Shown here one piece after another: positions 34,178 to 54,660 of a DNA stretch of 64,000 nucleotides (the stretch's first letter is position 1; every line of letters begins with the position of its first letter). The position numbers and the translations under genes are program-made. The stretch lies in NCBI GenBank assembly GCA_017464285.1, contig JAFUDT010000013.1, positions 379,175-443,174 of the forward strand, given 5' to 3'. The stretch comes from Bacteroidales bacterium (lineage in GTDB: Bacteria > Bacteroidota > Bacteroidia > Bacteroidales > UBA1402). The notes below the pieces were generated by a model. The model was not told where the DNA came from, searched no databases, and saw only the letters and a list, made by a program, of their open reading frames with translations.

Positions 34178-34208
34178 GGAGCCGATTTCAGCGGCCGTCC
34201 GGCATGCC
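34178..34208 (+). repeat. Partial copy (F) of the hairpin-repeat family (3' arm plus start of tail)
   Basis: GGAGCCGATTTCAGCGGCCGTCCGGCATGCC aligns with copy B GAGCCCCGATTTCAGCAGCCGG(GATGGTT)CCCGGCATGCC. Confidence 0.7.
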
Positions 34209-34705
34209 TCAGACATTGCTGTTCCGCCCCCAGACCCCCAACCGCCGGCGCATCCGGGTGGAGTGGGGGGCTTTCGAAAGTACTTCTGAAAGTAGCGCCA
34301 CCGGTGGCAATCGGGGTTTCGGACAGCCGTGGCAGGAAGAAACCCTTCTCGATAGTGTACCCGTCCGATGAACTGTAGAGCGCAGGCCTGGCCTGTTTTA
34401 ATGGCTGATGTCAGCTAAGTGACGGATGGTTCTACGGCACACGCTTACGGAGCAGGCACCGAACCCTTAAATAATTCCCGCAAGAATGTTATTCCTGCTT
34501 GAATAATTGTCGGAATTCACTTATTTTTGTGTCGATTCATGCAGTGAAGATAAACGGCGAAAAAGCGTGTATTTATAATTGCACGTCTCAAGTATTGTTA
34601 CGAGTTGATTTTTTTTATTTGTGAAAGACAATGGAATGCTTTCGATGTAATCTTTCAGCAGATCGGTTTACAGCTACCCACTCTCGTTAAGTAATTTTAA
34701 GAAGG

Positions 34706-36790
34706 ATGAATCAATCTCAATACAACCAACTCTTCTCTTTTATCTGGAATATTGCAACAGATGTGCTAGTTTATGCCTTTGAGAAAGGTGAGTATAAGAA
34801 AATCATCATGCCGATGATGGTCTTGCGTCGTATCGACGTTCTTCTGGAACCAACAAAGGAACACTTGCTGGCTCAGAAGAAGATGTTGGATGATAACAAC
34901 ATCAATAACCAGGATCCTATTCTTTTTACGGTGACTGGTTATCCGTTCTACAACACTTCGCTTTTCACAATGAAGACGCTGAAAAGCGAAACTGACCCAT
35001 TACGCCTGAAGATGAACTTCACGGATTATCTCAATGGCTTTAGTAAGGATGTCCAGGATATTCTTGATAAGTTCCATCTAAGGCAGATGGTGGATAACCT
35101 TACTGAAGCAGAGCGTTTGGGTAGCATCATTGAGAAATTTACCGATGACAAAATAAACCTCTCGAACAAACCCGTGCTTAACGATGACGGAAACGTAAAA
35201 TTACCGGCCCTCGATAACCATACGATGGGCACGATGTTTGAGGAGTTGCTTCGTAAGTTCAATGAGGAGAACAACGTAACTGAAGCTGGTGAGCACTTCA
35301 CACCCCGTGATTATGTGAAACTACTTGCCGACCTCGCCGTGCTTCCTGTTGCTGACAAGATTACAGACAATACTTACAACATCTATGATGGCGCTTGTGG
35401 AACTGGAGGTATTCTCACGATTGCACAAGACAGTATTCAGGAGATTGCTGAAAAGCTTGATAAACGTGTTATTGTGAATATCTATGGGCAGGAGTTGCAA
35501 CCGGAAACGTATGCTACATGTAAGGCCGATTTGATGATATCTGGAAATATCAAGTCTTTCCAATATGCTTTTGGCACTCAACAGCGTGAATATATTGCTT
35601 TCGATAGCACCATTTCACGCGACGGCCACGCTGGAGAGAATTTTGATTTCTGCATCTCCAATCCACCATTCGGCACTCCATGGAAAGAGGATTTGAAGAA
35701 ACGGGGATTGGGTGAGAATGAAAAAAAGAAATTCACGGATAGTCGTTTCCAGCTGTTAGATAAAGATGGCAATGAAATTTCTTTCATCCCGGACATCGGT
35801 GACTGCCAGATGATGTTCCTTGCCAACAATCTGTCACGTATGCGTGACGATACGCCACTTGGCACTCGCATCGTTGAGGTACACAACGGCTCCAGCTTGT
35901 TTACGGGCGATGCCGGCAGCGGTGCCAGCAACTTACGCCAATACATCATTGAGAACGACTTGCTCGAAGCCATCGTTGCCATGCCAGAGAAAGACTTTTA
36001 CAACACAGGTATTGGCACTTTCGTATGGGTCATAACCAACCGCAAAGAAGACAGGCGAAAGGGCTTCGTGCAGCTCATAGATGCTACAGAGATAAAGACT
36101 CCGCTTCGCAAGAATCTTGGCGAGAAGAACTGTGAAACGGCAGAGGAAGACCGCAAAGCCATCCTTAAACTGCTGATGGACTTTGAGGAAACACCGCAAA
36201 GCAAGATATTTCCTAACAACGAGTTTGGCTATTGGAGCGTGAAGGTGTGTCGTCCGCTGCGACTGAAATCGCAGATTACGAACAATGGCATAGCCCTTTG
36301 CATCCAGGATAAAAAGTTCAAGGACATGCAAGACTGGCTTTCACGTCTATTTGAGGAAACCCAAGGCAAGGTATATCTTGACTTTAATTTGTTCATTAAA
36401 GAAGCTAAGGCTGCAACAAAGAAGCACGGCTTCAAATGGAAGAAATCTAATCGAGATGCCCTGCAGCGCTATTTCAGTGAGGTCTGCCCTGATGCCGAAA
36501 TTGTCGTCGATGATAACGGATGCCACGTACCCGACAAAGATCTAGAAGATTCTGAGATTATCCCGTTCCGTTATGAGAATGGCATCGAAGCCTTCCTTCA
36601 GAACGAGATACTTCCTTATACGCCTGATGCGTGGATTGACAAAGAAAGTATTCAGACGGGCTACGAACTTTCGTTCACCAAATACTTCTATAAGCCAAAG
36701 CAGCTGCGTACTATTGAAGAAATCAGCAAAGATATTCGTGGTATAGAGGAACGCACAGACGGATTGTTGAACGAAATCTTAGGAAAGTAA
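34706..36790 (+). CDS. hsdM: Type I restriction-modification system methyltransferase subunit
   Basis: 694 aa; AdoMet motif I YDGACGTGGIL, catalytic motif IV ISNPPFG; HsdM_N-like N-terminus; 1-nt gap to hsdS. Confidence 0.93.
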   Translation: MNQSQYNQLFSFIWNIATDVLVYAFEKGEYKKIIMPMMVLRRIDVLLEPTKEHLLAQKKMLDDNNINNQDPILFTVTGYPFYNTSLFTMKTLKSETDPLRLKMNFTDYLNGFSKDVQDILDKFHLRQMVDNLTEAERLGSIIEKFTDDKINLSNKPVLNDDGNVKLPALDNHTMGTMFEELLRKFNEENNVTEAGEHFTPRDYVKLLADLAVLPVADKITDNTYNIYDGACGTGGILTIAQDSIQEIAEKLDKRVIVNIYGQELQPETYATCKADLMISGNIKSFQYAFGTQQREYIAFDSTISRDGHAGENFDFCISNPPFGTPWKEDLKKRGLGENEKKKFTDSRFQLLDKDGNEISFIPDIGDCQMMFLANNLSRMRDDTPLGTRIVEVHNGSSLFTGDAGSGASNLRQYIIENDLLEAIVAMPEKDFYNTGIGTFVWVITNRKEDRRKGFVQLIDATEIKTPLRKNLGEKNCETAEEDRKAILKLLMDFEETPQSKIFPNNEFGYWSVKVCRPLRLKSQITNNGIALCIQDKKFKDMQDWLSRLFEETQGKVYLDFNLFIKEAKAATKKHGFKWKKSNRDALQRYFSEVCPDAEIVVDDNGCHVPDKDLEDSEIIPFRYENGIEAFLQNEILPYTPDAWIDKESIQTGYELSFTKYFYKPKQLRTIEEISKDIRGIEERTDGLLNEILGK

Positions 36791-36791
36791 T

Positions 36792-38054
36792 ATGGAGAGG
36801 TATAGTTCATATAAAGATAGTGGCATCTCGTGGATTGGTAAAATACCAGAGCATTGGGAGGTATGCAGAATGAAACGTGTTTTTTCGGAAGCAAAAGAAA
36901 AAACCACAACAGAAAGTGAAACACTTTTAAGTTTATCTCAATATACAGGAATCACGTTGAAAGATGATGCGAAAAAAGTTGGTATGTTTGAAGCCGAATC
37001 AACTATTGGGTATAATGTTGTTCATCCAGGTCAGTTTGTAATGAATATTATGTTGGCTTGGAATGGCAGCTATGCTGTATCTGATTATGAGGGTATTATT
37101 TCCCCATCTTATTGTGTCTTTAATTTCAATGAAGATTGCGAAAAGAAATACTTCCACTATCTTTTAAGGCTGCCAGCTTATGCGGGAGCTTTCAAAACTA
37201 TGTCAAAAGGCATAATTGAAAGCAGGCTTCGACTTTACCCAGTCTACTTTCTTGCTTTCAAAACCATAATTCCACCTCTCAACGAGCAACAATCCATTGT
37301 TGCCTACATCGAAGAAAAAACTTCCAAGATAGATGCTTATGTAGTAGACAAGGAGAAAGAGTTACGGCTGCTTAACGAGTTAAAAGAAACCGAAATTGCA
37401 AACGTCGTCACGCAAGGGCTTAACCATAATGTGAAGATGAAAGACTCCGGCATCCCTTGGATTGGGATGATACCTGAGCATTGGGAAATGGTTAAACTGA
37501 AAGTGTATTGTAAAGAGAATAAGGAAAAGAATAGGAATAATCAAGAGTCCACAGTTTTATCTTTAAGTTACGGTAATGTAATAGTTAAACAAGACTTGAA
37601 TGCAGGGCTTTTGCCAGAAAACTATGACTCCTATCAAATTGTCAACCCTGGGTATATAATACTTCGGCTCACTGATTTGCAAAACGATCACAAAAGTCTT
37701 AGGACTGGGTTAGTGAAAAATAGAGGAATAATAACCAATGCGTATGTAGGATTGATAGTAGAGAAAATAAATCCTGCTTATACAAGATTCCTTCTCCATT
37801 CTTATGACTTGAAAAAATTGTTTTACAGTATGGGCGGAGGATTACGTCAATCCATGAGTTACAAGGATGTAGCTAATCTTATGATTTGCGTTCCTCCTCT
37901 TAGCGAACAGCGTGCCATTGTTGAACATATCGAAAACAAGTGCAACAAAGTAAATTCTCTCATTTCCGAATTGGAAGCTGAAATAGAATATCTCAAAGAG
38001 TATAAACAACGTTTGATCGCTGACTGCGTGACAGGGCAAATCAACGTACAATAA
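36792..38054 (+). CDS. hsdS: Type I restriction-modification system specificity subunit
   Basis: 420 aa with two half-repeats (SGISWIGKIPEHWEVCRMKRVF / SGIPWIGMIPEHWEMVKLKVYC; ...PPLNEQQSIVAYIE / ...PPLSEQRAIVEHIE), as expected for two TRDs plus conserved spacers. Confidence 0.92.
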   Translation: MERYSSYKDSGISWIGKIPEHWEVCRMKRVFSEAKEKTTTESETLLSLSQYTGITLKDDAKKVGMFEAESTIGYNVVHPGQFVMNIMLAWNGSYAVSDYEGIISPSYCVFNFNEDCEKKYFHYLLRLPAYAGAFKTMSKGIIESRLRLYPVYFLAFKTIIPPLNEQQSIVAYIEEKTSKIDAYVVDKEKELRLLNELKETEIANVVTQGLNHNVKMKDSGIPWIGMIPEHWEMVKLKVYCKENKEKNRNNQESTVLSLSYGNVIVKQDLNAGLLPENYDSYQIVNPGYIILRLTDLQNDHKSLRTGLVKNRGIITNAYVGLIVEKINPAYTRFLLHSYDLKKLFYSMGGGLRQSMSYKDVANLMICVPPLSEQRAIVEHIENKCNKVNSLISELEAEIEYLKEYKQRLIADCVTGQINVQ

Positions 38055-38065
38055 AAGATTTTAAT

Positions 38066-38503
38066 ATGGACAAGAATTTTTGGAATACAGTTTTATCAAA
38101 CCTATCTTCGCCAGACAAAGTATCTGTGAGAAGGTATGAGGGTGATTATTATGGCATTTTCTCATCTGAAAATAGCAATGACACATACGACTGGTTCCAT
38201 GTGAATAGTCGTCAATTAGAATTAAATCTACAAGATAAAGGTTTTTCATGGTGTTATGTGATTGAAACTGCTCCTTCAGCAACACCTTTTATATATCTTT
38301 TTACGAGTCCCAATATGTCTAAGGACTTCATAAAGGACGAACTTAACTCATATATAGAAGAAATGCCAAAAGGTCGGCATGTCTATTTCGAGGATTGTTC
38401 TTTTTCTAATATAGACATTGACAAATACGATAACAGCATATCTGCATTGGAGAAGGAGCTATATCGCAAAGCAAGTGATGTCTTTAGAGTTTACAAAGTG
38501 TAG
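38066..38503 (+). CDS. Hypothetical 145-aa protein embedded between hsdS and hsdR
   Basis: ORF with 11-nt and 26-nt gaps to its neighbours and the same strand; no signal peptide or TM; no recognisable motif. Confidence 0.55.
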   Translation: MDKNFWNTVLSNLSSPDKVSVRRYEGDYYGIFSSENSNDTYDWFHVNSRQLELNLQDKGFSWCYVIETAPSATPFIYLFTSPNMSKDFIKDELNSYIEEMPKGRHVYFEDCSFSNIDIDKYDNSISALEKELYRKASDVFRVYKV

Positions 38504-38529
38504 AATCATATATAATATTAGAAATTTTT

Positions 38530-41493
38530 ATGCCTACAGATACCAGCGAAAAGAATCTTGAAACTATCCTTGTCAGTTATTTGTGCAACCAACACAAATA
38601 CGAGCAGGGCGTAAGTGAGAACTATAATAAAGACTACGCGCTCGACACTGAGCGTGTGAAGCGTTTCCTTCTCTCCACACAAAAGCTAAAGGTGGAGAAC
38701 ACCGCTTGTTTTGCAAGCGAGGTGTCTGAGCGCAAATTTTTCACTGAGCTAAATAAGCAACTGGCAACCAACGGTATAACACATATACTACGTAAAGGGT
38801 TCCGCTACATATCAGAGATATTCGATATGTATTATCCGCTTCCATCTGAGCTGAATCCTACTGCTAAGGAGCTGTATGGCAAAAATATATTCTGCGTCAC
38901 CCGGCAGCTATTCTACAGCAAAGAAAATAGCAACAGCATTGATGTGATGATTTCGCTAAATGGCTTGCCCGTCATGACATTGGAACTGAAAAACCACTAT
39001 ACCAATCAGACGATTGAGAATGCTGTTACCCAGTACCAAAACGACCGCGACCCGAAAGACCCCTTGCTGGCTCCCAAAAGGTGCGCCGTACATTTTGCCG
39101 TTGATGATGACGACATCAAAATGTGTACTTGGCTTTCAGGCAAATCATCGTGGTTCCTACCATTCAACAAAGGTGTAAATGGAGGAGCCGGAAATCCAAT
39201 CAATCCCAATGGGATGAGAACTGCCTATCTTTGGGAAGAAATCCTAAAGAAAGAATCTCTCTCTGACATTCTTGAAAACTACGCACAGGTAGTTGTCAAG
39301 AAAGTACGGGAGCGTGATAAGAACACGGGCAAATATAAGGAAGTTACAAAGACTTCTGTCGTATGGCCCCGCTATCACCAGTTAGATGCAGTTCGTAGTT
39401 TGCTGAAGGCAACGCGAGAAGGAGGCATCGGCCAGCGGTTCTTAATTCAACACTCAGCTGGCAGTGGTAAGTCTAATTCAATCACTTGGCTAGCCTATCA
39501 GCTTGTAGGGCTGCTGGATGGAACACAACCGCTGCTTGACAGCGTTATCGTAGTAACTGACCGTGTGAACCTTGACAATCAAATCAGGGACAACATTGCT
39601 GCATTTAAACGTCTGCAAAACCTTGTTGCTTGGGCGGACAGCGCAGACAGAAAAGATAGCAATACTTCATTGAAGAGCCTGCTGGAATCGGGGAAGAAAA
39701 TCATCATTACAATCGTACATAAATTCCCATATATTCTGGATGCAATCGGAAATGAACTAAAGAACAAACGCTTCGGCATTATCATAGATGAAGCGCATAG
39801 CAGCCAAAATGGTTCCTTGTCTGCTAAGATGAATATAGCCCTAAGTGGCAATGCTGGAGGCGACGAGATGGACTTGGAGGACCGGCTGAATCAAATTCTC
39901 GAGGGACGGAAGATGGTGAAGAATGCTAATTACTATGCATTTACTGCTACACCTAAAAATAAAACGCTGCAAATGTTCGGTCAGCCGTTTGATGCTCCAG
40001 AGGGTGAAATAGGTCACCGCCCATTCCATGAATACACCATGAAGCAAGCTATTGAAGAGGGCTTTATAATGGACGTATTGGAGAATTATACCACCTACAA
40101 TAGTTATTACAAGATAGTGAAAGCTATTGAGGAAGACCCGGAATTTGAAAAGAAACAGGCACAAAAGAAACTCCGTGCTTTTGTGGAAAGTCAGCCCGAG
40201 ACAATTCAGCAGAAAGCTTCTGTCATTGTTGAGCATTTCCATACTCAGGTTATTGGTAAAGGCAAGGTTGGAGGACAAGCTCGCGCTATGGTGGTGACAA
40301 GCAGCATCCTCCGCGCCATCGAGTTTTATTATGAGATAAAACGTCAACTGGAAGAACGCAAAAGTCCTTATAAGGCTATCGTCGCCTTCTCGGGTACTAA
40401 AGAGTATGGTGGGAAGCAGGTGTCTGAATCTGATGTAAACGGTTTCCCCTCTAAGGATATTGAGGATAATATGGAAATTGACCCATACCGCATTCTCGTT
40501 GTGGCCGATAAGTTCCAGACGGGTTATGACCAACCACTTCTTCATACTATGTACGTGGATAAGGTGCTTTCTGATGTCAAGGCTGTTCAGACGCTTTCGC
40601 GTCTTAATCGTTGCCATCCTAAGAAACGCGATACTTTTGTCCTGGACTTTGCAAATGATGCAGATGACATACAGAAAGCATTTCAGCGTTATTATAAGAC
40701 AACAATTCTTTCTAAGGAAACTGACCCGAATAAACTCAATGACCTTATTACGGAAATTGAACAGGCTAACATCTACACCGAAGACGATGTGCGTAATCTC
40801 AATGAAAAGTATTGGAGCGGCGCAGAGCGCAATGAGTTGGATCCAATAATCAATACTTCCGTTGACCGCTTCAAGACTTTGGATGAAAACGCTCAGATAC
40901 GCTGTAAGAGTAGCATCAAGTCTTTCCTGCGCATCTATCCGTTTATCGCTGCTGTTATGCCGTTCAAGAGTCAGGAGTGGGAAATGCTAAATACCTTCTT
41001 CATGTTACTTGTTCACAAGTTGCCTAAACTGAAAGGTGAAGATTTCACAGAAGGCTTGCTGGACGCAATAGACTTTGACCAATATCGGCTTGTTAAGGGT
41101 GAGGAACTGAAGATTGAATTAGAAAACAGAGATGAATCCATTGAGCCTATCCCTGTAGGACAACCTAAAGGAAAAGCTGAGCCGGAGATACAGAAGCTCA
41201 GTGACATCCTCGATGAGTTCAACGGCATCAATTGGCTGAACAAGGACAAAGCTAAACAGCAGTTAGAGGAACTGCCGACACGCCTTCAAGCGGATGAAGC
41301 ATTTGTCAATGCGGTGCGTAACAGCAACCGCCAGACGGCTATGCAACAATTCAGCCAATCTATGATGGCGATAGCTATTCAAATGCTGAATGAAAATACA
41401 GAGTTTACACGCAATTACCTTGACAATCCTGATTTTCAGAATTTCATTAACCAGCGCGTCTTCCAGAGCGCATATAATAGTGTAAGGAGATAA
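38530..41493 (+). CDS. hsdR: Type I restriction endonuclease subunit R (SF2 helicase/translocase)
   Basis: 987 aa; motif I HSAGSGKSNS, motif II IIIDEAHSSQ, motif III FTATP, motif VI QTLSRLNR; HsdR_N-type N-terminus. Confidence 0.94.
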   Translation: MPTDTSEKNLETILVSYLCNQHKYEQGVSENYNKDYALDTERVKRFLLSTQKLKVENTACFASEVSERKFFTELNKQLATNGITHILRKGFRYISEIFDMYYPLPSELNPTAKELYGKNIFCVTRQLFYSKENSNSIDVMISLNGLPVMTLELKNHYTNQTIENAVTQYQNDRDPKDPLLAPKRCAVHFAVDDDDIKMCTWLSGKSSWFLPFNKGVNGGAGNPINPNGMRTAYLWEEILKKESLSDILENYAQVVVKKVRERDKNTGKYKEVTKTSVVWPRYHQLDAVRSLLKATREGGIGQRFLIQHSAGSGKSNSITWLAYQLVGLLDGTQPLLDSVIVVTDRVNLDNQIRDNIAAFKRLQNLVAWADSADRKDSNTSLKSLLESGKKIIITIVHKFPYILDAIGNELKNKRFGIIIDEAHSSQNGSLSAKMNIALSGNAGGDEMDLEDRLNQILEGRKMVKNANYYAFTATPKNKTLQMFGQPFDAPEGEIGHRPFHEYTMKQAIEEGFIMDVLENYTTYNSYYKIVKAIEEDPEFEKKQAQKKLRAFVESQPETIQQKASVIVEHFHTQVIGKGKVGGQARAMVVTSSILRAIEFYYEIKRQLEERKSPYKAIVAFSGTKEYGGKQVSESDVNGFPSKDIEDNMEIDPYRILVVADKFQTGYDQPLLHTMYVDKVLSDVKAVQTLSRLNRCHPKKRDTFVLDFANDADDIQKAFQRYYKTTILSKETDPNKLNDLITEIEQANIYTEDDVRNLNEKYWSGAERNELDPIINTSVDRFKTLDENAQIRCKSSIKSFLRIYPFIAAVMPFKSQEWEMLNTFFMLLVHKLPKLKGEDFTEGLLDAIDFDQYRLVKGEELKIELENRDESIEPIPVGQPKGKAEPEIQKLSDILDEFNGINWLNKDKAKQQLEELPTRLQADEAFVNAVRNSNRQTAMQQFSQSMMAIAIQMLNENTEFTRNYLDNPDFQNFINQRVFQSAYNSVRR

Positions 41494-41494
41494 T

Positions 41495-43339: not shown

Positions 43340-43438
43340 AAGATCCTTAATTATTGCGCTAAACTGGTACTGTCACTCACCGTTTCCGATCACAGTGACA
43401 TTGCTTGGTGCCGTAAGTGCGTGATAATTATCGAAAAA

Positions 43439-44560
43439 CTATCTTCGTGTTAGTTGACCGATTAATTTTTCGGCATATTCTTTGCTTAAATGATGATTGA
43501 CTAAAAACTTGAGAATTAGTTTTTGGTCTTCAACCGCTTCGGCGGTCCTGATAAATGTCGGCTGGTTAATGCTGATAAAGGAAGAGAGCCTACCGTCTGT
43601 CATCTTTTGAATAGCTCGTTTGATTTCTCTCATGGACTCGGTGTCTCGAGTAAAGATTGTGATATCCTTTTTCTCTGTGTTAACGTAATCTGACTGTTTC
43701 AAGAAGAACGGCGCAAAATATTGACGGTCGTTCTCGCCAAGAGAGTGACCAAAGATCACAACTTCATCGGCCTCTCTGAGCTTTGTGACGATATCTGATG
43801 GGTTAAACGAATCGTCCATCGCCTTCTGAAGAAAGTCATAGCTCTCAGCTATTGTTTGGTCATCTCGTGTTCCAATAATTATTTTGCCGTCCTCACAAGA
43901 ACCATGTACGTATTTGATGTGAATGTCGTCAAGATTGTGATTGGGCCACCAGGGATGAGTGTAATTGAAGGTGAAGGCGTCAACAAAGGCGCCAGCTTCT
44001 TGTGTCTTTATAATCGCATGGAGTATCTGATAAGATACTTTTTTCTCGGAAATTGGCATTTTGATGGATCCCAAATAACTACAGAGTTTATCTTTGATAA
44101 GGTCTAGCGCTTTCTTGTCGCGCCAGATGGGAGATTGAAGTGCGTCGTCTTTATAGTGCTCATGGACCTCTCTATATATTCCATAATCGGTTGCGGAAAG
44201 GACCCCTTTATTGATGAGAGATTCTATCAGATTCCATTGGTTGTCATACCAACCATTTATGTATCCATAAGATGTGAATTTTTCAAGAAAGTGTCTCTCT
44301 TCTTCTGTGATAATATCCTTGGCTTTCGTTGGGTCCTTAACGATCTCATAATAATAATCTAGTAGTCCGTTTTCCAGGTCATACCATCTTACACTCTCAA
44401 GGTTGTTTGGCCAATGCTGATTCAAGTAATGGATGAGTGGAGCTGGATAATCCTTAGGGCAATAGTCTGACTCCCAAAAGTCTTTGTAGGACGTTTTGAA
44501 GCCAAGGTCAAGGTCGAATCCGTTACCTAGGATAAGCACTATTTTGCGCGGCTCAGTCAT
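43439..44560 (-). CDS. AbiH-family abortive-infection protein
   Basis: 373 aa; N-terminal IVLILGNGFDLDLGFKTSYKDFW matches the AbiH hallmark (GNGFDL..G.KTSY.DF). Confidence 0.7.
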   Translation of the reverse strand: MTEPRKIVLILGNGFDLDLGFKTSYKDFWESDYCPKDYPAPLIHYLNQHWPNNLESVRWYDLENGLLDYYYEIVKDPTKAKDIITEEERHFLEKFTSYGYINGWYDNQWNLIESLINKGVLSATDYGIYREVHEHYKDDALQSPIWRDKKALDLIKDKLCSYLGSIKMPISEKKVSYQILHAIIKTQEAGAFVDAFTFNYTHPWWPNHNLDDIHIKYVHGSCEDGKIIIGTRDDQTIAESYDFLQKAMDDSFNPSDIVTKLREADEVVIFGHSLGENDRQYFAPFFLKQSDYVNTEKKDITIFTRDTESMREIKRAIQKMTDGRLSSFISINQPTFIRTAEAVEDQKLILKFLVNHHLSKEYAEKLIGQLTRR

Positions 44561-44735
44561 GCATCTAATTATTTTCGATTACGAATCAACACTCTATTCT
44601 GATTAATGAGGTCCTTGGCCTCAAATGTACTAACATTGATTTATCCCTGCAAAGAAATAACGCGACTTTCTGCTGGTTTGTTTGCGAAAGTTCTTCCTGG
44701 CTATTATTTTTGTCCGTTGACAAAGTCTAAGAACG

Positions 44736-45173: not shown

Positions 45174-45179
45174 ACTGTT

Positions 45180-48100: not shown

Positions 48101-48908
48101 TGGTACTTTCGGATGCAGAGGAGGAGAGAATCCTATGATATTTGTCCGTATAAATGATCCCGAAAAAGTAAGACGAGACTCCGAAAATATGAAATACGAG
48201 AATTTAATCCTCAAAAGGACTTTAAACAAGAACAAGATCAGTTCGGAGCTCTTTGATTATTTTTTTATGAATGACTTTGATGATAAAAAACGTTGGTCAT
48301 TTATCGAGGATTTTTTTCTGGGAATGGATAACGACGATCTGTTTACTAGATATCCTGCAACATCACTGTGTCACACGAACATAATTCAATACATTGAAGA
48401 TCATATACAATCAACAGAAACCCTGTCTGTTGCGCCAAAGAAAACGACGTCAGAGGGACAATCAGTATCCTTTGCTCCTATCGCTGGCACTTTTTATTCA
48501 GATGATAGACAACTCACAATAAACGGAGTGACCAAAACTATAAGTAGGTGGATAATAGACAGCCCGGTAGAACTAAATAAAACGATAACCAACTATTCGA
48601 TAAAGATTGGTAAAAACAGTCGATCAGTACTAATTTCCAAGTTGATGAATAATCACAAGGAATACTATCGAGAATTCATTGGATTAAATGCTCTAATAGA
48701 TTTTCCGGGGTACGAAGGGCCTGTGAAGGCAAGCATTCCATTTCAATATGAGCCGTTACAGTTTTATCGCTGGTGGCAGAAGAATGAAGATGTAGTTTAC
48801 CTAAGTAAGTCAAATCAAATAAAGTTATTCCTCACAGTCGTAGACCAAGGAGAAACATTATTAAAAAGGCATAGTCAAGTCCTTTTGATGAGTAAAAAGA
48901 GATTATAA
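45180..48908 (+). CDS. 1242-aa protein with a central RecQ-like SF2 helicase core and unassigned N- and C-terminal regions
   Basis: Motifs TAPTGAGKS (I, ~46206), IVSPLIALMKDQ (Ia), VIDEAHLITTWGRDFR (II), IAVTATA (III), LCTKAFGMGVDIPD (V), QEIGRVARD (VI). The ~290 aa upstream and ~580 aa downstream have no motif I recognise. Confidence 0.8.
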   Translation: MSTSETGLYNKIMTSTVSTYYTNKILSIIDEYSSRNDFTIFVFLGVTECIDTRAIIGNILDQKTFYLDGGEQIFDKAWRRDAVKQIINSDKPFVILSYQQFCYLEQNLGKDFLENVVIIQDNLRSLYQISPHLYIRPNIHEKEADLEERPDKLPVYQAEQFVFDNKYFYSVDIPSDPNYIIVPLFTERKQINVDLKHPSNRVKLIDLKGDSYALDIILNECVRGDFLYEQIVIKTYKKNPLTGLYRQRIECINAFLNRLGHSISEYQETLDKEECHISKETISLLHEYWGNDASFRDIEVYSNPDEGKTLVKISQGQIVQTIIKEYKNSRSGTEVRDLLLTAPTGAGKSLIFQLPAFHIAKKGDVTIIVSPLIALMKDQVDAIKARGFARVEYINSLLNYIDRDRIIKECQAGHVDILYMSPELLLSYHISHFIGDRSIGLMVIDEAHLITTWGRDFRVDYWYMGEHLRKIRKNLPYSFPIIAVTATAIYGGDNDMVFDTIDSLHMQRPHLFIGKIRREDILFAINNYDSPKSQYYSFKLAQTAAFISKMVELGAKTIVYTPYKRHIGDILSKICTPEEKEKIAIYKSDLDSYIKEESMNLYKSGEKTIMLCTKAFGMGVDIPDIQVVYHHAPSGLLPDYIQEIGRVARDPKVIGIAAIEYSEKDQIYSKALHGLSSIKPFQIQYILKKLYSLYLKNEKKRNMVVSTDDFQYIFPKSNAEEVSQKVQTGLMMIEKDYLAKYRFNVVIARPKQLFVKAYARTNEFGYNFLMMNYKNCIDSVVKEENGHYWMLLDLDKVWKKNFVDITFPLLKKRFYDQELFSDKNLLLVPEVRFDFEFTSDFTKSYAYISDILEATSGYFSISLTSFKEVDLENQLVKSIPDGRKREQYVRFILTTYSDIGNKETDSFLQARRNGHGQFFFVKNNNYEKKFSNLKRLFYELFGNGQQKVTRYRQYGGTRALDLYRLGGLFDLFDLGTFGCRGGENPMIFVRINDPEKVRRDSENMKYENLILKRTLNKNKISSELFDYFFMNDFDDKKRWSFIEDFFLGMDNDDLFTRYPATSLCHTNIIQYIEDHIQSTETLSVAPKKTTSEGQSVSFAPIAGTFYSDDRQLTINGVTKTISRWIIDSPVELNKTITNYSIKIGKNSRSVLISKLMNNHKEYYREFIGLNALIDFPGYEGPVKASIPFQYEPLQFYRWWQKNEDVVYLSKSNQIKLFLTVVDQGETLLKRHSQVLLMSKKRL

Positions 48909-49357
48909 TGTGACAATGTGTGAGTATAGCGTTAATAAGATACCGAGTGTAGCGCACTAGATGGTACTGCCATGACGCGCAAATGGGTACCGACTTGGAT
49001 GCTTGATGGCTTGCAGGATTTCAAAGAGTCTTATATCTTTGACCTAAAATATTTGGTCAAGAGTAGAAATATTTTCGGTGTCTGCCGGCTGTTGTTCTTC
49101 AACAGGACTGATTGTGGTACTACCGTCCACAGACCATTTATTTTATGGTACTACCAATCGAGTTGTTGGATGTGGGAGTAAAGTCAGCACTTGTTGTATG
49201 CGTTGCTCCACTCAAACCCTCCAGCAGCTCGATTTCTATTACTCCGTAGCTATTTGCTTTTGATTCTGCATTCGTGAATTCTAATTAGAAGTGCAACACA
49301 CTTCAAAAGTCAAAGTTGAACGGAGATTTGTGTTTCAGAGTAGAAATCAGCACGAGG

Positions 49358-49503
49358 GCTTCGCCGCGGTATAGATTGGGGGTTTGGTGGCGAGGCACTG
49401 TTTTGTCCTGTGCCGAGCGGCAAACCACAAATCTCAGCGGCAAGCCCGAACCAATCGGAAGGCCCAATCCCGGCGTTGCGTTGCAGTTGTTGCAGTTGTT
49501 TCC
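49358..49503 (+). repeat. Hairpin-repeat family, full copy A (hairpin 49358-49445 + tail)
   Basis: Contains TGGTGGCGAGGCACTGTTTTGTCCTGTGCCGAGCG and tail GTTGCGTTGCAGTTGTTGCAGTTG; abuts the umuC stop codon. Confidence 0.9.
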
Positions 49504-49508
49504 CCCTC

Positions 49509-50804
49509 CTATCGCAATCTGATGATGTCGGACCAGCGAGTGGTGGGATTCTTGCTGCGGAAATCGTGCTTGATGGCATTGGCAAAGACTTCGGCCTTGC
49601 CCCGCCCGTCTTTTAAGGTATATTGCTGAGCCCCGACGACCACCGTCTCCGAACCATGCAGGCGGTTGATACGGTCGACCACCTCGTCGAGCCGCCGCAT
49701 CTTCTGAATCTGCTCGGCACTCAAGTCGAACAAATCTGTCTGCACAGGACTGTCGGGATCGATGTTCATGACAATGACACCGGCCTTCTTGTAGCGATAG
49801 CCCTCGACAAAAATACGGTCGAGCACTTCGAGCGCCGCCCGCACCACCAGCGTGGTCGAAGATGTTGGAGTGAGAAGGCTCGTCTCCTGGAAATTCCAGT
49901 ATTGCGCCAAATCTTCGCGAAAAGCATTGGTATGGACAAATACCCCCACCGTCGAGGCCACACTCTGCTGCATGCGCAGCTTCTCGGCACAACGAGCCGC
50001 ATAGTTGGCCACATGAGTGCGAAGGGCCTCCTTGTCGGCTATCATGCCCTGAAACGAACGGCTGGTGCAGATGCTTTTCTTGCGGGCCAGCTCCTCGTTG
50101 GGCACCACATCCTCGCCGTTGAGCTCCTGCCAAGTACGCAGCATGTTGATGTTGTTAAAGGTAAGCTGCACCCAGTCACGGTGGTGGCTGGCCAGATCGA
50201 GCGCCGAGTGGCAGCCCAGCGCCTTGAGCTTGGCCGCATAGCGCCGACCGATGCCCCAGACATCTTCGATGGGACACCACGCAAGGGCCCTCTGGCGCTT
50301 GTAGTCGTTGTCGATGATGCAGCAATGCTTGTAGGCGGCATATTTCTTGGCCAGCTTGGAGGCGATCTTGGCCAGCGTCTTGTTGGGCGCCAGGCCGATG
50401 CTGATGGGCAGGCCCACCTCGCGCCTGACCCGCCGGTGGAGATGCTCGCCCCACTGCTGGAGCCTGTCGGGAGCTATGCCATCGAGATACATGAAGCACT
50501 CGTCGATCGAGTAGCGGAAATAGGCGGGCGCCTCCTGGCGGATGATACTCACCACACGCCCCGTGAGCTCGCCGTAGAGCTCGTAGTTGGAAGAGAAGAC
50601 GGCGATCTTCTGCCCGGGAAACTGCTGCGCCAGCCGGAAATAGGGCGTGCCCTCCTGGATGCCCATCTTCTTGGCCTCGTTGCTGCGGGCCACCACGCAG
50701 CCGTCGTTGTTGGACAGCACGACTATGGGTCTTCCCTCCAGATCGGGGCGGAACACCTTCTCTCACGAGCAGTAGCAATTGTCAAGGTCGGCGATGCCGT
50801 ACAT
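49509..50804 (-). pseudogene. umuC: Y-family DNA polymerase V subunit UmuC, interrupted by an in-frame TGA at codon 14
   Basis: Minus strand reads ATG TAC GGC ATC GCC GAC CTT GAC AAT TGC TAC TGC TCG TGA GAG AAG GTG TTC CGC = [21 protein letters not shown]..., then 415 uninterrupted codons ([14 protein letters not shown]...[11 protein letters not shown]). TGA at 50765-50763. Confidence 0.8.
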
Positions 50805-50806
50805 GG

Positions 50807-51244
50807 TCAGAACTTCTCGAAGGTGCGGATGAGGTGGATGACGGTGCCCCAGATCTGGAAATTCTCGGGGTCCTTGATCTTGAAGACCGGGTAGTCGGGA
50901 TTGGCCGGGCGTAGCTCGATGTAGCCTTCCTTGCGATGGGTCAGGTCGAGATACTTCATGGTGAAGCCGCCGTCCCACCAGGCCACTACGATCGAGCCGT
51001 CGTGGGGCTCCACGGCTCTGTCGATGATGACGCGGTCGCCGTCGAACAGGCCGGCATCTTTCATGGAGTCGCCTTCGACATAGCCGTAGAACGAGGCTTC
51101 GGGATGCCGGATAAAGTCGCGGTTGAAGTCGAGCGTGTCGTGTATGTAGTCGTCGGCCGGGCTGGGAAATCCGGCGGTCACCCCGGCATTGACCAACTCA
51201 AGCCGGGTGTCGAACTCTCCTCTCACTATCTTGATATTGCTCAT
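50807..51244 (-). CDS. umuD: SOS-response translesion subunit UmuD (LexA-like S24 peptidase)
   Basis: 145 aa; cleavage-site-like AG, Ser GDSM, Lys ...FTMKYL...; its stop lies 2 nt before the umuC ATG. Confidence 0.88.
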   Translation of the reverse strand: MSNIKIVRGEFDTRLELVNAGVTAGFPSPADDYIHDTLDFNRDFIRHPEASFYGYVEGDSMKDAGLFDGDRVIIDRAVEPHDGSIVVAWWDGGFTMKYLDLTHRKEGYIELRPANPDYPVFKIKDPENFQIWGTVIHLIRTFEKF

Positions 51245-51316
51245 AACTCGAATCTGCTGATACTAATCTTCCTTAAGAACGAAGGTAAGCGAATTTTATG
51301 AAACGGCAAAAAAATC

Positions 51317-51462
51317 GGCAGTCTTCCGGCTGCGGTACAAATCGGGCGCTCTGGTGGCGAGGCACTGTTTTGTCCTGTGCCGGGCGCCAGAGCCCCGATT
51401 TCAGCAGCCGGGATGGTTCCCGGCATGCCGGTGTTGCGTTGCAGTTGTTGCAGTTGGTTTGG
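51317..51462 (+). repeat. Hairpin-repeat family, full copy B (hairpin 51326-51411 + tail)
   Basis: CCGGCTGCGGTACAAATCGGGCGCTCTGGTGGCGAGGCAC-TGTTTTGTCCT-GTGCCGGGCGCCAGAGCCCCGATTTCAGCAGCCGG, then ...GTTGCGTTGCAGTTGTTGCAGTTGG. Confidence 0.92.
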
Positions 51463-51524
51463 AGTAGGATTTTGTGTTGCTAAGTCGAAGGGGTTTTCGT
51501 AGTTTTGCAGAAAGCTCATGAAAA

Positions 51525-52514
51525 ATGGAAGAGAACAAGATTATCATATACCAGACAGAGGATGGACAGACGCAGATTGATGTTCGTCTGGAGAACGAGA
51601 CAGTGTGGCTGACACAGGCTCAGATGGCAGAACTGTTCGAAAAGACGCCTCAGAATATTACCATGCATATTGGTAATGCGTATAAGGAGGGCGAGCTGGA
51701 AAGAGACTCAACATGTAAGGAATACTTACAAGTTCAACAAGAGGGAAAGAGGAAAGTTTCTCGTATCGTGAAATACTACGACCTCGATGTCATCATCTCT
51801 GTGGGTTACCGCGTCAAAAGTAAGCGCGGTACCGCTTTCCGCATTTGGGCTCGTAAGGTCTTGAAAGACTATCTCGTCAAAGGTTATGCCGTCAACGAAC
51901 GCCTTCGCAAGGAACAGATTGGAGAGTTGCGCCAATTGGTTGGTATGATTGGTAGAACTATTCAGAATCAGCCGCTAGCATCGAATGATGAAACGAATGC
52001 TCTCTTCGAGGTGGTGACGAATTACACCTATGCGCTCGATACGCTCGACAACTATGACTATGAACGGCTGACCATCGATAAGACCACGAAGGAAGAACCT
52101 TTCCATGCCACCTACGAGAATGCAATGGAAGCCATCAATGGCTTGCGTAAAAAGTTTGGTGGTTCGGCTCTGTTTGGCAATGAGAAGGACGAGTCGTTCA
52201 AAAGCAGCATCGGACAGATTTACCAGACTTTTGGGGGTGAGGAGCTTTATCCCAGTGTAGAGGAGAAAGCCGCCATGCTGCTCTATCTTGTCACCAAGAA
52301 CCATTCCTTCAGTGATGGCAACAAGCGCATAGCAGCTACACTTTTCCTGTGGTTCCTCAACAACAACGGCATCCTTTATCGCGAAGATGGCTCCAAGCGT
52401 TTGGCAGACAACACCCTGGTTGCTCTGACGCTGATGATAGCAGAGAGCAGGACGGAGGAGAAGGATGTAATGGTGAAAGTGGTGGTAAACCTGATAAACC
52501 AAAGAAACAACTGA
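51525..52514 (+). CDS. RhuM-family N-terminal domain fused to a Fic/Doc domain
   Basis: 329 aa; N-terminal ...IIIYQTEDGQTQIDVRLENETVWLTQAQMAELF...VISVGYRVKS.RGT.FR.WA is RhuM-like; C-terminal HSFSDGNKRIAA matches the Fic/Doc core HxFx(D/E)GN(G/K)R; a TAGTTTTG -7-like box at 51500-51507. Confidence 0.8.
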   Translation: MEENKIIIYQTEDGQTQIDVRLENETVWLTQAQMAELFEKTPQNITMHIGNAYKEGELERDSTCKEYLQVQQEGKRKVSRIVKYYDLDVIISVGYRVKSKRGTAFRIWARKVLKDYLVKGYAVNERLRKEQIGELRQLVGMIGRTIQNQPLASNDETNALFEVVTNYTYALDTLDNYDYERLTIDKTTKEEPFHATYENAMEAINGLRKKFGGSALFGNEKDESFKSSIGQIYQTFGGEELYPSVEEKAAMLLYLVTKNHSFSDGNKRIAATLFLWFLNNNGILYREDGSKRLADNTLVALTLMIAESRTEEKDVMVKVVVNLINQRNN

Positions 52515-52540
52515 AATAAACGTTTGTGGATTGCCTGGCT

Positions 52541-52600
52541 CCCGGAGCGTTGCGACGGTAGTTGTTGCAGTTGGTTTGGGGATTTCGGCAGCCGCAGTGG
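52541..52600 (+). repeat. Hairpin-repeat family, partial copy C (tail-like segment + 3'-arm end)
   Basis: CCCGGAGCGTTGCGACGGTAGTTGTTGCAGTTGGTTTGG followed by GATTTCGGCAGCCGCAGTG. Confidence 0.75.
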
Positions 52601-52836
52601 TTATCAGTTAACAATTGCTCAGTGCATACAGAGGGACGATGTCCACGTGTCTTTGCTCGAAATTGTCCTTGGGGTCGTAGTGGTCAAACTGACCGATTGC
52701 CTTGCGGGTGCGAAGTTATAAATAGTTTCCAAAAGTCGGGGCAAAAAACATGGGAAATTATCCAAAATACAGCCCAAAACCAAAAGTCGGGGCAAAAAAG
52801 GAGTCCGTTTATCTAAAAGGAAGGGCGAAAACAGAC

Positions 52837-52887
52837 CTTTTTGTCCTGTGCCGAGTGCCGGAGCTCCGATTTCGGCAGCCGCAGTGC
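52837..52887 (+). repeat. Hairpin-repeat family, partial copy D (loop + 3' arm)
   Basis: CTTTTTGTCCTGTGCCGAGTGCCGGAGCTCCGATTTCGGCAGCCGCAGTGC. Confidence 0.8.
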
Positions 52888-52983
52888 TTCTTCGATGCCG
52901 TTCGACGTTTTTCGGGGTAAGAAGCCAAAATGTTTGTTATACTAAACATTTATGCTTATATTTGCGCCCAATAAGATACAATT

Positions 52984-53283
52984 ATGGGTAAGAATACATT
53001 TGGTAAAACGATGCCAAGGGCACTGAGCCAGAACCTGAAGATTATGGGCGAGCAAATCATGTTGGCCCGCAAGCGCAGACATTTGTCTATGCAGGACATT
53101 GCAGACAGGGCTACTGTGACACGCCTCACTGTCTCGAAGGTGGAACATGGCGACCCGACGGTTTCCATGGGTATCTATGCGCGTGTACTCTTCGCACTTA
53201 ATTTGGAAAAGGATATTACCCTGCTGGCGGCCGACGACGCTCTTGGCAGACAGCTTCAGGATGCAGAATTACTAAGACGATGA
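52984..53283 (+). CDS. XRE-family HTH protein (HipB-like antitoxin)
   Basis: 99 aa; HTH ...LARKRRHLSMQDIADRATVTRLTVSKVEHG...; its stop overlaps the hipA ATG (ATGA). Confidence 0.85.
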   Translation: MGKNTFGKTMPRALSQNLKIMGEQIMLARKRRHLSMQDIADRATVTRLTVSKVEHGDPTVSMGIYARVLFALNLEKDITLLAADDALGRQLQDAELLRR

Positions 53284-54530
53284 AGAGAATTATAGTTTAC
53301 GCAGATTTTGACTTCCTGACCTCCCCCGAAGAGATAGGATCATTGGACTACGAACATGTTCGTGGCAAAGACCATTTTGCCTTTGAGTATTCGCGCCAGT
53401 GGCTGAAACAACATGGCGGCATTCTGCTGAGCGGTGACCTGCTGAATGTCCCTTCATTGCAGCATCCTCGTAGCAATGATAATGTGTTCGGCTTTGTCAA
53501 GGATTCCTTTCCCGATCGCTGGGGACAGCTGTTACTCGACCGCAGAGAGCGACTGGCTGCTCAACAGGAAGGCAGGCCGAAACGCATGCTTACCAATTAC
53601 GACTACCTCGTAGGGATTGAAGACTTCACCCGTATGGGGGGCATACGTTACAAAGAGGAAAAAGGTAGTGACTTTATTAATGCGAATGCAAAATACCATG
53701 TTCCTCCGATTGAGAGTCTTCGTGCCCTATGCGATGCATGCCATGAAATAGAGTTGGCTGAGGAGCGCAATGAATTGCCGGAACAACGCTGGCTCGATCA
53801 GTTGATCGACCCGGGAACCTCGCTCGGTGGCGCCCGTCCTAAGGCCAATGTGGTTGATGCGGACGGTAAACTGTATGTGGCCAAGTTCCCATCTAAGAAG
53901 GATCTGGAGAATACAGAGTTTATAGAACACTTCTCACATCAACTGGCGGCCAAAGCTGGTATCAACGTGGCAAAGACACGCACCATCAAGATTTCAAAAG
54001 ACCGTGATCTGCTTCTTTCTGAACGTTTCGATAGAACAGCGGAAGGCCGTCGCATTCATTTTGCTTCTGCTATGTCGTTGCTTGGTTTGGACGACGGTGC
54101 TGGCGGCAGCACAGGTAACGGCTATCTTGACATTGTTGATTTCATCCTTCGTGGGTGTACCGATGTGCGCCGGAATCTCAAGGAGCTATATCGCAGAGTG
54201 GCATTCAACATCATGTTTGGCAACACAGACGACCACTTCCGTAATCACGGTTTTCTGCTTACCCCGAAAGGCTGGACGCTCTCTCCTGCATACGATATCA
54301 ATCCGGGAGCAGAGTCACATCAGAGCTTGCTCATAGACTCATACACAGAAGAATCGAACATCAATGTCTTGCTCTCTGCAAGCGAGAGCTACATGCTTGA
54401 CAGGCAAGAGGCAAAAGATATTATTGAGGAGGTTCGTGCCACGATCAAAGACTGGCGTAAAATCGCAACTGAACTGCAAATACCCCTAAAGTTGTTGGAG
54501 TCATATTCTATTCGTTGGGATGAACTATAA
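53280..54530 (+). CDS. hipA: HipA-family serine/threonine kinase toxin
   Basis: 416 aa; HipA_N coupling region, GTSLGGARPKANV, catalytic NTDDHFRNHGFLL. Confidence 0.9.
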   Translation: MKRIIVYADFDFLTSPEEIGSLDYEHVRGKDHFAFEYSRQWLKQHGGILLSGDLLNVPSLQHPRSNDNVFGFVKDSFPDRWGQLLLDRRERLAAQQEGRPKRMLTNYDYLVGIEDFTRMGGIRYKEEKGSDFINANAKYHVPPIESLRALCDACHEIELAEERNELPEQRWLDQLIDPGTSLGGARPKANVVDADGKLYVAKFPSKKDLENTEFIEHFSHQLAAKAGINVAKTRTIKISKDRDLLLSERFDRTAEGRRIHFASAMSLLGLDDGAGGSTGNGYLDIVDFILRGCTDVRRNLKELYRRVAFNIMFGNTDDHFRNHGFLLTPKGWTLSPAYDINPGAESHQSLLIDSYTEESNINVLLSASESYMLDRQEAKDIIEEVRATIKDWRKIATELQIPLKLLESYSIRWDEL

Positions 54531-54568
54531 AACAGAAGCACATTCTGCATATTTTTCGTGAAAAAGTA

Positions 54569-54660
54569 GTCTTCCGGCTGCGGTACAAATCGGGCACTCT
54601 GGTGGCGAGGCACTGTCGTGTCCTGTGCCGAGCGCCAGAGCCACGATTTTCGGCAGACGG
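54569..54660 (+). repeat. Hairpin-repeat family, full hairpin copy E (no tail)
   Basis: GTCTTCCGGCTGCGGTACAAATCGGGCACTCTGGTGGCGAGGCACTGTCGTGTCCTGTGCCGAGCGCCAGAGCCACGATTTTCGGCAGACGG. Confidence 0.92.

Follow-up and report, generated by a model that had tools for sequence, protein, structure and literature searches.

The window analysed here, a stretch of 64,000 nt from a Bacteroidales bacterium (contig JAFUDT010000013.1, positions 379,175 to 443,174 of the forward strand), contains full and partial copies of a repeat with a hairpin core of approximately 100 nt, which are located at the joints between modules of accessory genes. According to the explanation that we favour, the repeat is a resident, lineage-specific and structure-constrained mosaic element at the junctions of cassette-like accessory arrays, and for this explanation as a whole we estimate a probability of about 0.4. 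Its general part, namely that the repeat is a resident junction or recombination element, appears rather probable to us, while its specific part, a hairpin-directed enzyme acting on single-stranded DNA (ssDNA), is tentative and may well not hold. Since the repeats lie exactly at the joints between imported modules, they have the appearance of the seams of an array, without a recombinase gene in the vicinity.

All copies in the window are on the plus strand and lie between 34 and 55 kb; three of them are full (A, B and E) and three partial (F, C and D). The full copies and D were recovered by repeat detection, by an nhmmer profile and by a covariance model, while F and C are too short for the models and were recognised by sequence matches. 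Copy A (49353-49503) is a full unit, in which a long linker joins the A-type hairpin (49353-49455) to the tail (49473-49501). Copy B (51319-51465), likewise a full unit, has a hairpin of the B type (51319-51422), after which come a linker and a tail (51433-51459), and 3' of it the plus strand continues with a post-tail motif and then with a Bacteroidetes-type -7 box for rhuM-fic (TAGTTTTG, 51501-51508). Copy E (54567-54671) is a full hairpin without linker or tail, the conserved 5' end of which (AGTCTTCC) begins at 54568. Copy D (52836-52888) corresponds to the 3' half of a hairpin beginning in the apical loop (TTTTGTCC) and extends with a linker and a shortened tail to 52926. Copy C (52538-52602) is a 5'-truncated unit comprising the end of an A-type linker, a tail and then GGGGATTTCGGCAGCCGCAGTGG, which resembles a 3' arm; it is 96.6% identical to positions 2146-2203 of L012, where this sequence comes after a hybrid hairpin (loci from related contigs are given by their L numbers, individual hairpins in them by a lower-case letter). 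Copy F (34178-34208), at the susC edge of the array, comprises the distal 3' arm and the start of a linker, with the exact 16-mer CCGATTTCAGCGGCCG followed by CCGGCATGCC as in the linker of B; a Logan contig of another sample stops at 34182, i.e. within F.

The motif counts are far above expectation. The 3'-arm 16-mer was found six times in the window when up to two mismatches were allowed (0.2 matches expected; exact in F, two mismatches in C), the 21-nt apex pattern three times (0.02 expected), and the 19-nt tail GTTGCAGTTGTTGCAGTTG exactly in A and B (0 expected), with a variant in C. All five sites in the window are confined to 32% of its length (P ~0.003), and the covariance model detected no copies in the remaining 44 kb of the window. 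Within arrays the orientation is uniform (6/6, 6/7 and 4/4; combined P ~5e-4). Where inverted pairs flank cargo, as in L006, L013 and L001, their 5' sides point toward the cargo.

The full copies fold as one long imperfect hairpin, with z scores from -3.3 to -7.5 in comparison to shuffled sequence under RNA or DNA parameters. The apex of approximately 36 nt is invariant and consists of a 5-bp stem, an 11-nt loop, a tandem G.A/A.G mismatch and a bulged G. Also invariant is an asymmetric internal loop (5 nt by 2 nt), in which GGTAY, as part of GCGGTA(C/T) on the 5' arm, faces CA on the 3' arm. Altogether 35 invariant columns are concentrated in the apex and in the 5'-arm internal loop; the outer helices are variable, and the helices between the invariant parts drift with their pairing retained. 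The invariance of apex and internal loop implies a specific partner.

Covariation was assessed in 16 distinct copies (three from the window and 13 from related contigs), with the fold of B as the reference structure. In this set the share of paired cells is 83.8%; it drops to 26-42% if the 3' partners are shifted by one to three columns. Ten pairs are changed on both sides. The covariation score of 0.168, compared to 0.093 in shuffles, was reached by none of 500 shuffles, and RNAalifold reports seven compensated pairs, including a change from G-C to A-U in the apical stem in six copies. At least four arm types exist, each internally complementary (AAATCGGGCGCTCTGG/CCAGAGCCCCGATTT, AGATTGGGGGTTTGG/CAAACCACAAATCT, AAATCCGGCCCTCTGG/CCAGAGGCCGGATTT and AAATCCGGCGGACTGG/CCAGTCCCCGGATTT). 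The stem base reads CCGGCTGC...GCAGCCGG in B and E, GGGCTTCGCCGC...GCGGCAAGCCC in A and CTGCGGCCGG...CCGGCCGCAG in a second subfamily, which was found by profile searches of related contigs together with further divergent copies. In this subfamily the apical stem is AGCAC/GTGCT in place of GGCAC/GTGCC, and its copies are bare hairpins ending exactly at the stem base. T.G wobbles are found on the plus strand, the fold of which is better than that of the minus strand by 2-7 kcal/mol in every copy tested. The covariation, the wobbles and the more stable plus strand support the view that a folded single strand of the hairpin is under selection.

A preliminary description of this DNA had already proposed full and partial copies in one orientation, an imperfect hairpin with a nearly invariant apex, compensatory differences between the arms of A and B, and selection on the structure in a single strand. 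The data given above bear out these proposals, and the compensatory differences are not limited to A and B but extend to the further arm types. The preliminary description had also held that pairing is kept and that A, B and C share a tail. Pairing is kept in most copies, but two related ones, L012a and L006a, are hybrids of a B-type 5' arm and an A-type 3' arm that do not fold (z +0.5 to +0.8), and in its exact form the tail is common to A and B only, C having a variant of it.

The hairpin is flanked by optional modules. On its 3' side it can be followed by a linker of approximately 25 nt and by a tail (GCGTTGCG..GCAGTTGTTGCAGTTG..TTTGGG), which contains TTGCAGTTG twice; in some copies a second GATTTCGGCAGCC motif (C and L012a) or the post-tail motif comes after the tail. 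At the tail end there are weak matches to the Bacteroidetes -7 box (TTGTTTTG or TTGGTTTG), located approximately 35 nt upstream of some hairpins. On the 5' side either a tail with a spacer of 20-26 nt (L006a, L013a and L005b) or an AT-rich module of approximately 90 nt, designated X (49260-49352 in the window, L006b and L013b), can be present. In the window, X is a plus-strand extension of hairpin A, and homologous segments are located 5' of hairpins in L006, L008 and L013; an X-like segment is also found inverted beside a truncated hairpin in L006. Module X harbours a perfect 12-nt palindrome (TTCTAATTAGAA, 49279-49290) just 5' of hairpin A, an imperfect form of which is kept in the corresponding module X' of L006 and L013; this palindrome may serve as a binding site for a protein. 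Another conserved module of non-coding sequence, with short repeats (GATATGGCAGGGATATGCCAGCGATATGCCTGCGGTTTGAGCG), precedes the hairpin on the 5' side in L001 (7262-7310), where it adjoins the hairpin directly, and in L002 (329-390), both of which belong to species-representative metagenome-assembled genomes (MAGs).

The comparison with other genomes reveals what is resident and what is imported at this locus. The exact 99-aa HipB of the window is listed in 844 blocks of the collection. In nine other hipB loci (41-47% GC) the nucleotide identity to the window is 87-92%, with hipA full-length in six and partial in three of them. The left limit of homology is at 52926/52927 in all nine loci, right after the linker and shortened tail of D. 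The right limit is at 54565 (...CGTGAAAAA) in five full-length loci and in two with a partial hipA, and at 54539 in L038. Homology of the hipBA module thus ends 2 nt before E, and the hairpin was not found in any of the nine other hipBA loci. Since the sequence past E has no relation to that which follows hipBA in other genomes, E marks a junction and not an insertion. The GC content of the elements (59-62%) is close to the 58% of the core genome, while that of the cargo is 41-48%, except for umuDC with 59%. As judged from these comparisons, the repeats are shown to belong to the host lineage and not to be carried by the cargo. Their resident, lineage-specific nature is new relative to the preliminary description.

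Two further comparisons concern the arrangement of the cargo. In L038, which is free of hairpins, rhuM-fic, hipBA and a gene for an AAA_14 ATPase lie side by side; in the window the same three are reordered and inverted, and a piece of the hairpin family is present at every joint. L006 and L013 share a left module (hairpin a on the minus strand, spacer and tail) and a right module (X', hairpin b on the plus strand and a gene for a 67-aa membrane protein). Between these shared modules, L006 contains 624 nt, whereas L013 contains a defence island of 14.1 kb with a WYL protein, a restriction-modification (RM) system of the MmeI/Eco57I type, an SNF2-PLD helicase and a resolvase. The two loci are homologous precisely up to the 5' ends of the tail and of X'. 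At the outer flank of hairpin a they become homologous from the apex onward, the 3' arm of L006, which faces dapB, being of another type.

Taken together, the comparisons of loci show that cargo from unrelated donors sits between consecutive units, with the junctions a few nucleotides from the unit ends, and that the same pair of units can hold alternative cargo. They also show that an exchange can fall within the invariant apex, giving rise to the non-folding hybrids. The proposal that the region is a hotspot resembling a cassette array is thus supported, with hipBA ending within 2 nt of E and with the alternative cargo of L006 and L013.

The repeat family is rare, undescribed and limited to a few ruminant-gut Bacteroidales. 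The exact apex was found in two of 185,579 species-representative genomes, in one stretch each. Both are MAGs of ruminant Bacteroidales, one from yak rumen and one from goat reticulum; assemblies of this type are interrupted at repeats. The window, too, derives from a MAG of a ruminant-gut Bacteroidales. Six loci in metagenomes, on four contigs from one sample and on one from another, contain the exact apex as well; the other eight metagenome matches were chance matches to the 19 specified bases. Collections of plasmids, phages and viral contigs contained no match to the repeat. When the repeat was checked for membership in a known RNA family, Rfam 15 gave no match at the gathering threshold in the window or in seven related loci, and only chance-level ones at E values up to 5. 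The literature was searched for a named palindromic repeat of Bacteroidales, and none was found. The most copy-rich locus is L006 with seven copies or fragments in 7.3 kb between dapB and a Big_5 gene, just past which cysS is located. Copies also flank core genes, for example dapB and the his operon.

Hairpin b has a fixed position beside the same small gene in three genomes, while its other side is variable. This gene encodes 67 aa with two predicted membrane helices (MKLKKRKIKHAAIFLVCWF...) and is conserved approximately 120 nt downstream of hairpin b (L006 1851-2054; L013 from ~14840; L001 ~4900-5100 on the minus strand). A 201-aa open reading frame (ORF) beside hairpin b, considered as a candidate partner of the repeat, turned out not to be a true gene and was rejected; it is the gene for the 67-aa membrane protein, in another frame, that is conserved at this place. 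The AAA_14/DUF4143 ATPases were considered as a partner too, their genes being divergent at approximately 110-120 nt from hairpins in L006, in L012 and, in decayed form, in the window. Since they are also found beside hipBA in genomes without hairpins, they are not counted as evidence for a partner.

How the element might work can be outlined as follows. The plus strand would fold when single-stranded, and ssDNA, for instance the lagging-strand template, is favoured here over a transcript. A factor encoded elsewhere in the genome may recognise the folded strand at its apex and internal loop, and breakage or strand exchange at the hairpin foot and the tail could then admit foreign DNA between units. 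Afterwards, homologous recombination between units would swap, invert and delete cassettes. In its most far-reaching form, this would amount to an undescribed, integron-analogous cassette-capture system of ruminant-gut Bacteroidales, in which a recombinase or nuclease binds the apex and internal loop, and cargo from unrelated donors, without a site of its own, is inserted at the foot and tail. We consider the existence of such a system unlikely.

Several observations weigh against the interpretation of the repeat as a resident element of array junctions. In the window and the related contexts (approximately 150-200 kb, partly annotated), we found no integrase, transposase, HUH protein or other recombinase except one resolvase, and this resolvase lies inside the RM island of L013. 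It is also all that came out of the check for a linked recombinase, which relied on Pfam scans of approximately 70 ORFs in the window and related loci. The truncation points are scattered, falling in the apical loop (D), 2 nt before the loop (L006e), in the 3' arm (L001b), in the linker (L013a) or at the stem base (E), and they therefore look more like decay, homologous recombination or hairpin breakage than like one fixed crossover point. The exchange in the hybrids took place inside the longest identical stretch, as homologous recombination predicts. In strains whose pst block is 99.7% identical, the cargo is different and the nearest 6-10 kb are free of hairpins. Since the copies come from few and related sources, the counts given above overstate the number of independent covariation events. 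Finally, the sequence alone would fit a folded ssDNA or a folded RNA alike.

Among known systems, the element is functionally most like attC sites and the CALIN arrays (clusters of attC sites lacking integron integrases) formed by them. As in these arrays, imperfect hairpins (57-141 nt for attC, approximately 100 nt here) lie in one orientation between promoter-poor, tightly packed cassettes of unrelated function, including toxin-antitoxin and defence genes. The likeness extends to compensatory changes, to extrahelical or asymmetric bases (the internal loop and the bulged G of our element) and to one active strand, and the CALIN arrays are known without an adjacent integrase. Yet the element fails attC membership, because it has no R boxes, its conservation is reversed and the site is not borne by the cassette. 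The R''/R' boxes (RYYYAAC...GTTRRRY) are located at the stem base of attC, and neither is present at either foot of the element; GTTGCGT and GTTGCAG in its tail break the RRR rule of attC. The element conserves its apex and varies its stem base, whereas attC conserves the R/L boxes and varies the terminal structure. In contrast to attC, the hairpin is not carried along by the cargo, since elsewhere hipBA occurs without it; the cargo measures 0.2-14 kb and occurs in both orientations, and there are the extra tail and X modules. No IntI or Phage_integrase-type protein as in integrons is encoded in the window or the related loci. Of the attC-like role proposed in the preliminary description, the analogy thus stands, while the canonical attC features and a nearby integrase are absent.

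A similar judgement applies to the proposed role as a hotspot of the kind known for repetitive extragenic palindromes (REPs) and bacterial interspersed mosaic elements (BIMEs). As a description it is apt. REPs, BIMEs and the REP doublets (REPINs) with their REP-associated transposases (RAYTs) are likewise GC-rich, lineage-specific extragenic palindromes that form mosaics with short motifs and serve as rearrangement hotspots, and REPINs are the proposed ssDNA substrate of a single-copy enzyme encoded elsewhere. However, REPs measure 20-40 nt, carry a GTAG/CGTC tag and are present in tens to hundreds of copies, whereas the element is approximately 100 nt long, untagged and apparently low in copy number; its invariant unpaired motif GCGGTA(C/T) is situated within the 5' arm and is no terminal tag. 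REPINs conserve flanking 25-mers and vary the loop, whereas the element conserves the apex. No RAYT is encoded in the window or the related loci examined. Membership among the REPs thus fails on size and 5' tag, and apparently also on copy number.

In Neisseria, short non-coding modules, namely the intergenic mosaic elements (NIMEs) with dRS3 and the Correia elements, are shuffled beside variable genes, and in the so-called minimal mobile elements homologous recombination in conserved flanks replaces one cassette by another, no dedicated recombinase being encoded in the cassette. The dRS3 repeat is 20 bp long, and Correia elements have conserved terminal inverted repeats and a TA duplication. 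Shuffled modules and cassette exchange are what these mosaic elements have in common with ours; they differ in phylum and sequence and, by description, are without a covarying hairpin of 100 nt or an invariant apex. On Acinetobacter plasmids, toxin-antitoxin or resistance modules are flanked by pdif sites, XerC/D sites which are 28-bp duplexes in alternating orientation and are served by a host recombinase encoded elsewhere. Small modules, often of the toxin-antitoxin type, between short sites are found in both cases, but our element shows hairpin covariation and no evident dif-like 11-6-11 site at its apex. In the order Bacteroidales itself, more than half of the sequenced members harbour rAID-1 arrays, which have a XerD-family recombinase at their head and contain small co-oriented immunity genes (Ross et al. 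2019, bioRxiv 10.1101/471110). Compared to these arrays, considered here by description only, the element shares the order but is very rare, has no recombinase and is associated with other cargo and with mixed gene orientation. Because of the failed attC and REP membership and of these differences to rAID-1, we class the element with structured intergenic recombination or boundary repeats.

The main rival to our explanation is that the hairpin is a host structural repeat of the REP, BIME or NIME kind with a housekeeping role at transcripts (bidirectional terminator, 3'-end stabiliser or insulator between foreign and native units), and that cargo turnover is a passive by-product of homologous recombination. 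The mosaic composition of hairpin, linker, tail, X and post-tail motif is in line with this, and so are the lack of a nearby recombinase and the position of the exchange in the hybrids. Moreover, several copies are located right past stop codons: E lies 38 nt behind that of hipA and L006c 30 nt behind that of a phosphatase gene, L012a overlaps the stop codon of an HNH gene, and the tail of A is 5 nt from the stop codon of umuC. However, the copy number is apparently low and the host range narrow, and approximately half of the copies (B, F, L006f, L012b and L013b) lie between divergent gene starts, where there is nothing to terminate. No copy has a U-tract, no T-run is present within 2 nt of the stem, and a terminator scan flagged no hairpin, so that the terminator proposed in the preliminary description is disfavoured. 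Furthermore, termination needs neither an invariant apex of 36 nt nor an internal loop, and homologous recombination leaves the first capture of foreign DNA 2 nt from a hairpin foot unexplained. We therefore regard this rival as doubtful, though it has to be taken seriously. A structured non-coding RNA, either a small RNA (sRNA) or a cis-regulatory element of an untranslated region whose apical loop binds a protein or pairs with targets, is another role considered beforehand, and we keep it as a rival although it is improbable. Covarying stems, an invariant apical loop and a tandem G.A motif are typical of functional RNAs, the G.U pairs are on the plus strand only, and the weak -7 box matches at tail ends are upstream of some hairpins. 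But Rfam gave no match, no conserved promoter or terminator surrounds the hairpin, and the orientation is common with the neighbouring gene in approximately 11 of 16 cases, compared to approximately 75% by chance. In addition, half-copies and hybrids persist at junctions, and one would not expect an sRNA gene to be tied so tightly to the junctions of the cargo.

Alternatively, a tyrosine or serine recombinase encoded at another place could use the copies as double-stranded att-type sites, at which small islands were accreted in tandem in the manner of cis-mobilisable elements, with the apex as the core site and the tails as arm-type sites. This would account for the exchange at the apex in the hybrids, one of which is at a core-gene border beside dapB, for tails with direct repeats on either side of the hairpin, and for the direct orientation of the copies within an array. 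It is nevertheless quite improbable, since compensatory arm changes and strand asymmetry indicate a folded single strand and not a duplex bound by a dimer, and most copies have matched arms of several types, a matching that would be lost if unlike sites recombined repeatedly at the apex; neither the scattered truncation points nor the lack of an integrase in all contexts speaks for it. An ssDNA promoter or a single-strand initiation site (of the Frpo, ssi or sso type) in the leading region of a conjugative or mobilisable element had been suggested as well. Long, imperfect, orientation-specific hairpins with a conserved loop, all in one orientation in the window, and umuDC, defence and toxin-antitoxin genes among the neighbouring cargo would suit such a region. 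But relaxase, type IV secretion system, oriT, ssb and rep genes are missing from the window and the related loci, the flanking genes point both ways, the stem has no -33/-7 or -35/-10 boxes, copies are also found beside the core genes dapB and the his operon, and plasmids, phages and viral contigs gave no match, which makes this role very unlikely. Hardly any weight can be given to the idea that the repeats are remnants of a duplicated coding sequence. Five of the six frames are open across the hairpin, and a minus-strand ORF of 92 aa over B has an ATG start codon and overlaps the start of umuD by 4 nt as in coupled genes; yet among 5.8 billion proteins this ORF matches only itself, it belongs to no Pfam family, and a query joining all open frames of both subfamilies retrieved just two spurious ORFs. 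Since the ORF over B is without a homologue, the element is not coding, and the differences between copies follow base-pairing and not codons. A miniature inverted-repeat transposable element was rejected too: the termini, i.e. the stem base, are the variable part, there are no conserved terminal inverted repeats, and the only candidate for a target-site duplication, AATCAGT in L002, lies within conserved sequence of the element.

The gene annotation of the modules given in the preliminary description proved correct in Pfam searches, but its view of their borders has to be modified. That the repeat delimits every cargo module is overstated. The first module, a defence island of 41% GC (34706-48908), encodes a type I RM system (hsdM, hsdS and hsdR), GmrSD, AbiH, a 145-aa ORF and a 1242-aa helicase, all on the plus strand except AbiH, and the covariance-model search revealed no hairpin copies inside this 14-kb block. 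The second module is umuC-umuD (49509-51244, minus strand, 59% GC) and the third rhuM-fic (51525-52514, plus strand, 47% GC), which is 81% identical in nucleotide sequence to its counterpart in L038, where the orientation relative to hipBA is opposite. C and D had been taken as a single border but enclose a fourth module, a decayed AAA_14/DUF4143 cassette on the minus strand (52614-52835) made up of the 3' end of the gene and its upstream region with an internal deletion; it matches L038 8979-9061 and 7570-7708 in reverse orientation. The fifth module is hipB-hipA (52927-54565, plus strand), delimited by homology to the nine genomes.

The right side of the array requires particular caution. 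According to the strain comparison, the edge of the variable region is near 55207 and not at E, which had been regarded as the right border. The window corresponds exactly to the ENA contig k141_347201 of the same organism up to 55876 and then to another strain or locus of the L020 type (response regulator and histidine kinase, a 280-aa gene, porin and pst), while the ENA contig continues past 56405 into higB, a helix-turn-helix gene and yccF. The right part of the window, from the segment 55822-56405 onward, thus probably stems from a chimeric assembly or from recombination within the 280-aa gene. Because the window switches to the sequence of another strain, the adjacency of E to gene fragments and the pst block, described previously, is not reliable. 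The segment 55207-55531 is a divergent (approximately 90-93% identical), internally deleted copy of the promoter of the two-component system and the kinase gene. At the right edge of the variable region a 28-nt repeat is found (55197-55224), which recurs at the end of the window (63973-64000), and a segment downstream of the PHO4 gene (63352-63779) recurs at 90% identity in the variable region of another strain (L020 2405-2834). This repeat and segment may represent another boundary repeat.

Some features of the cargo and its surroundings deserve mention in their own right. The hsdS gene harbours a 47-nt direct repeat (36813-36859 and 37440-37486, 79% identity), as is typical of the two half-domains, and specificity could possibly be switched by way of this repeat; gene callers assign to hsdS 337 aa or 420 aa on identical DNA. 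In the AAA_14 upstream remnant between C and D, a 20-nt sequence (CCAAAAGTCGGGGCAAAAAA) is present twice as a direct repeat (52729-52748 and 52780-52799). The hipBA loci of L036-L043 (~5530-7550, homologous to 52927-54565) are preceded in most cases by a conserved 66-aa HTH_3 (CI-like) gene, beyond which each genome has a different defence system: type I RM, GmrSD with UvrD, an Eco57I-type enzyme with an SNF2-PLD helicase, or WYL with a methylase. It looks as if hipBA anchored a second type of defence hotspot, and a widespread one. Immediately 5' of the start codon of susC, a 25-nt sequence (TGAAGGTTGTTAGTTAGGTTTTGGA) is perfectly duplicated in tandem (34000-34049). Just past E, two terminator-like hairpins with T-runs (54682-54759) overlap the start of a 98-aa MarR-like ORF (54695-54991), which is probably mis-started or a fragment. 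Finally, tRNA-Lys(CTT) is followed by a segment of lower GC content (49%; 12512-13808) with a minus-strand ORF of 359 aa that lacks a Pfam match; no integrase was detected there, and the segment is possibly a small insertion at the tRNA.

The element described here bears on the open question of how defence islands and toxin-antitoxin arrays are assembled and reshuffled at chromosomal hotspots free of integrases and transposases, notably in Bacteroidales. The locus provides a testable handle on this question, since it contains a structure-constrained element of approximately 100 nt with an invariant recognition surface, located 2 nt from a module that is near-identical in unrelated genomes of lower GC content. 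If no enzyme is involved, the locus would still illustrate cleanly how portable homology and fragile palindromes organise a hotspot of defence genes, with the hairpin as a candidate for a structured motif, of RNA or DNA, that is new. Should a hairpin-directed enzyme exist, it would represent a second, independent solution to cassette capture besides integrons, in which the sites are owned by the host and not by the cassette.

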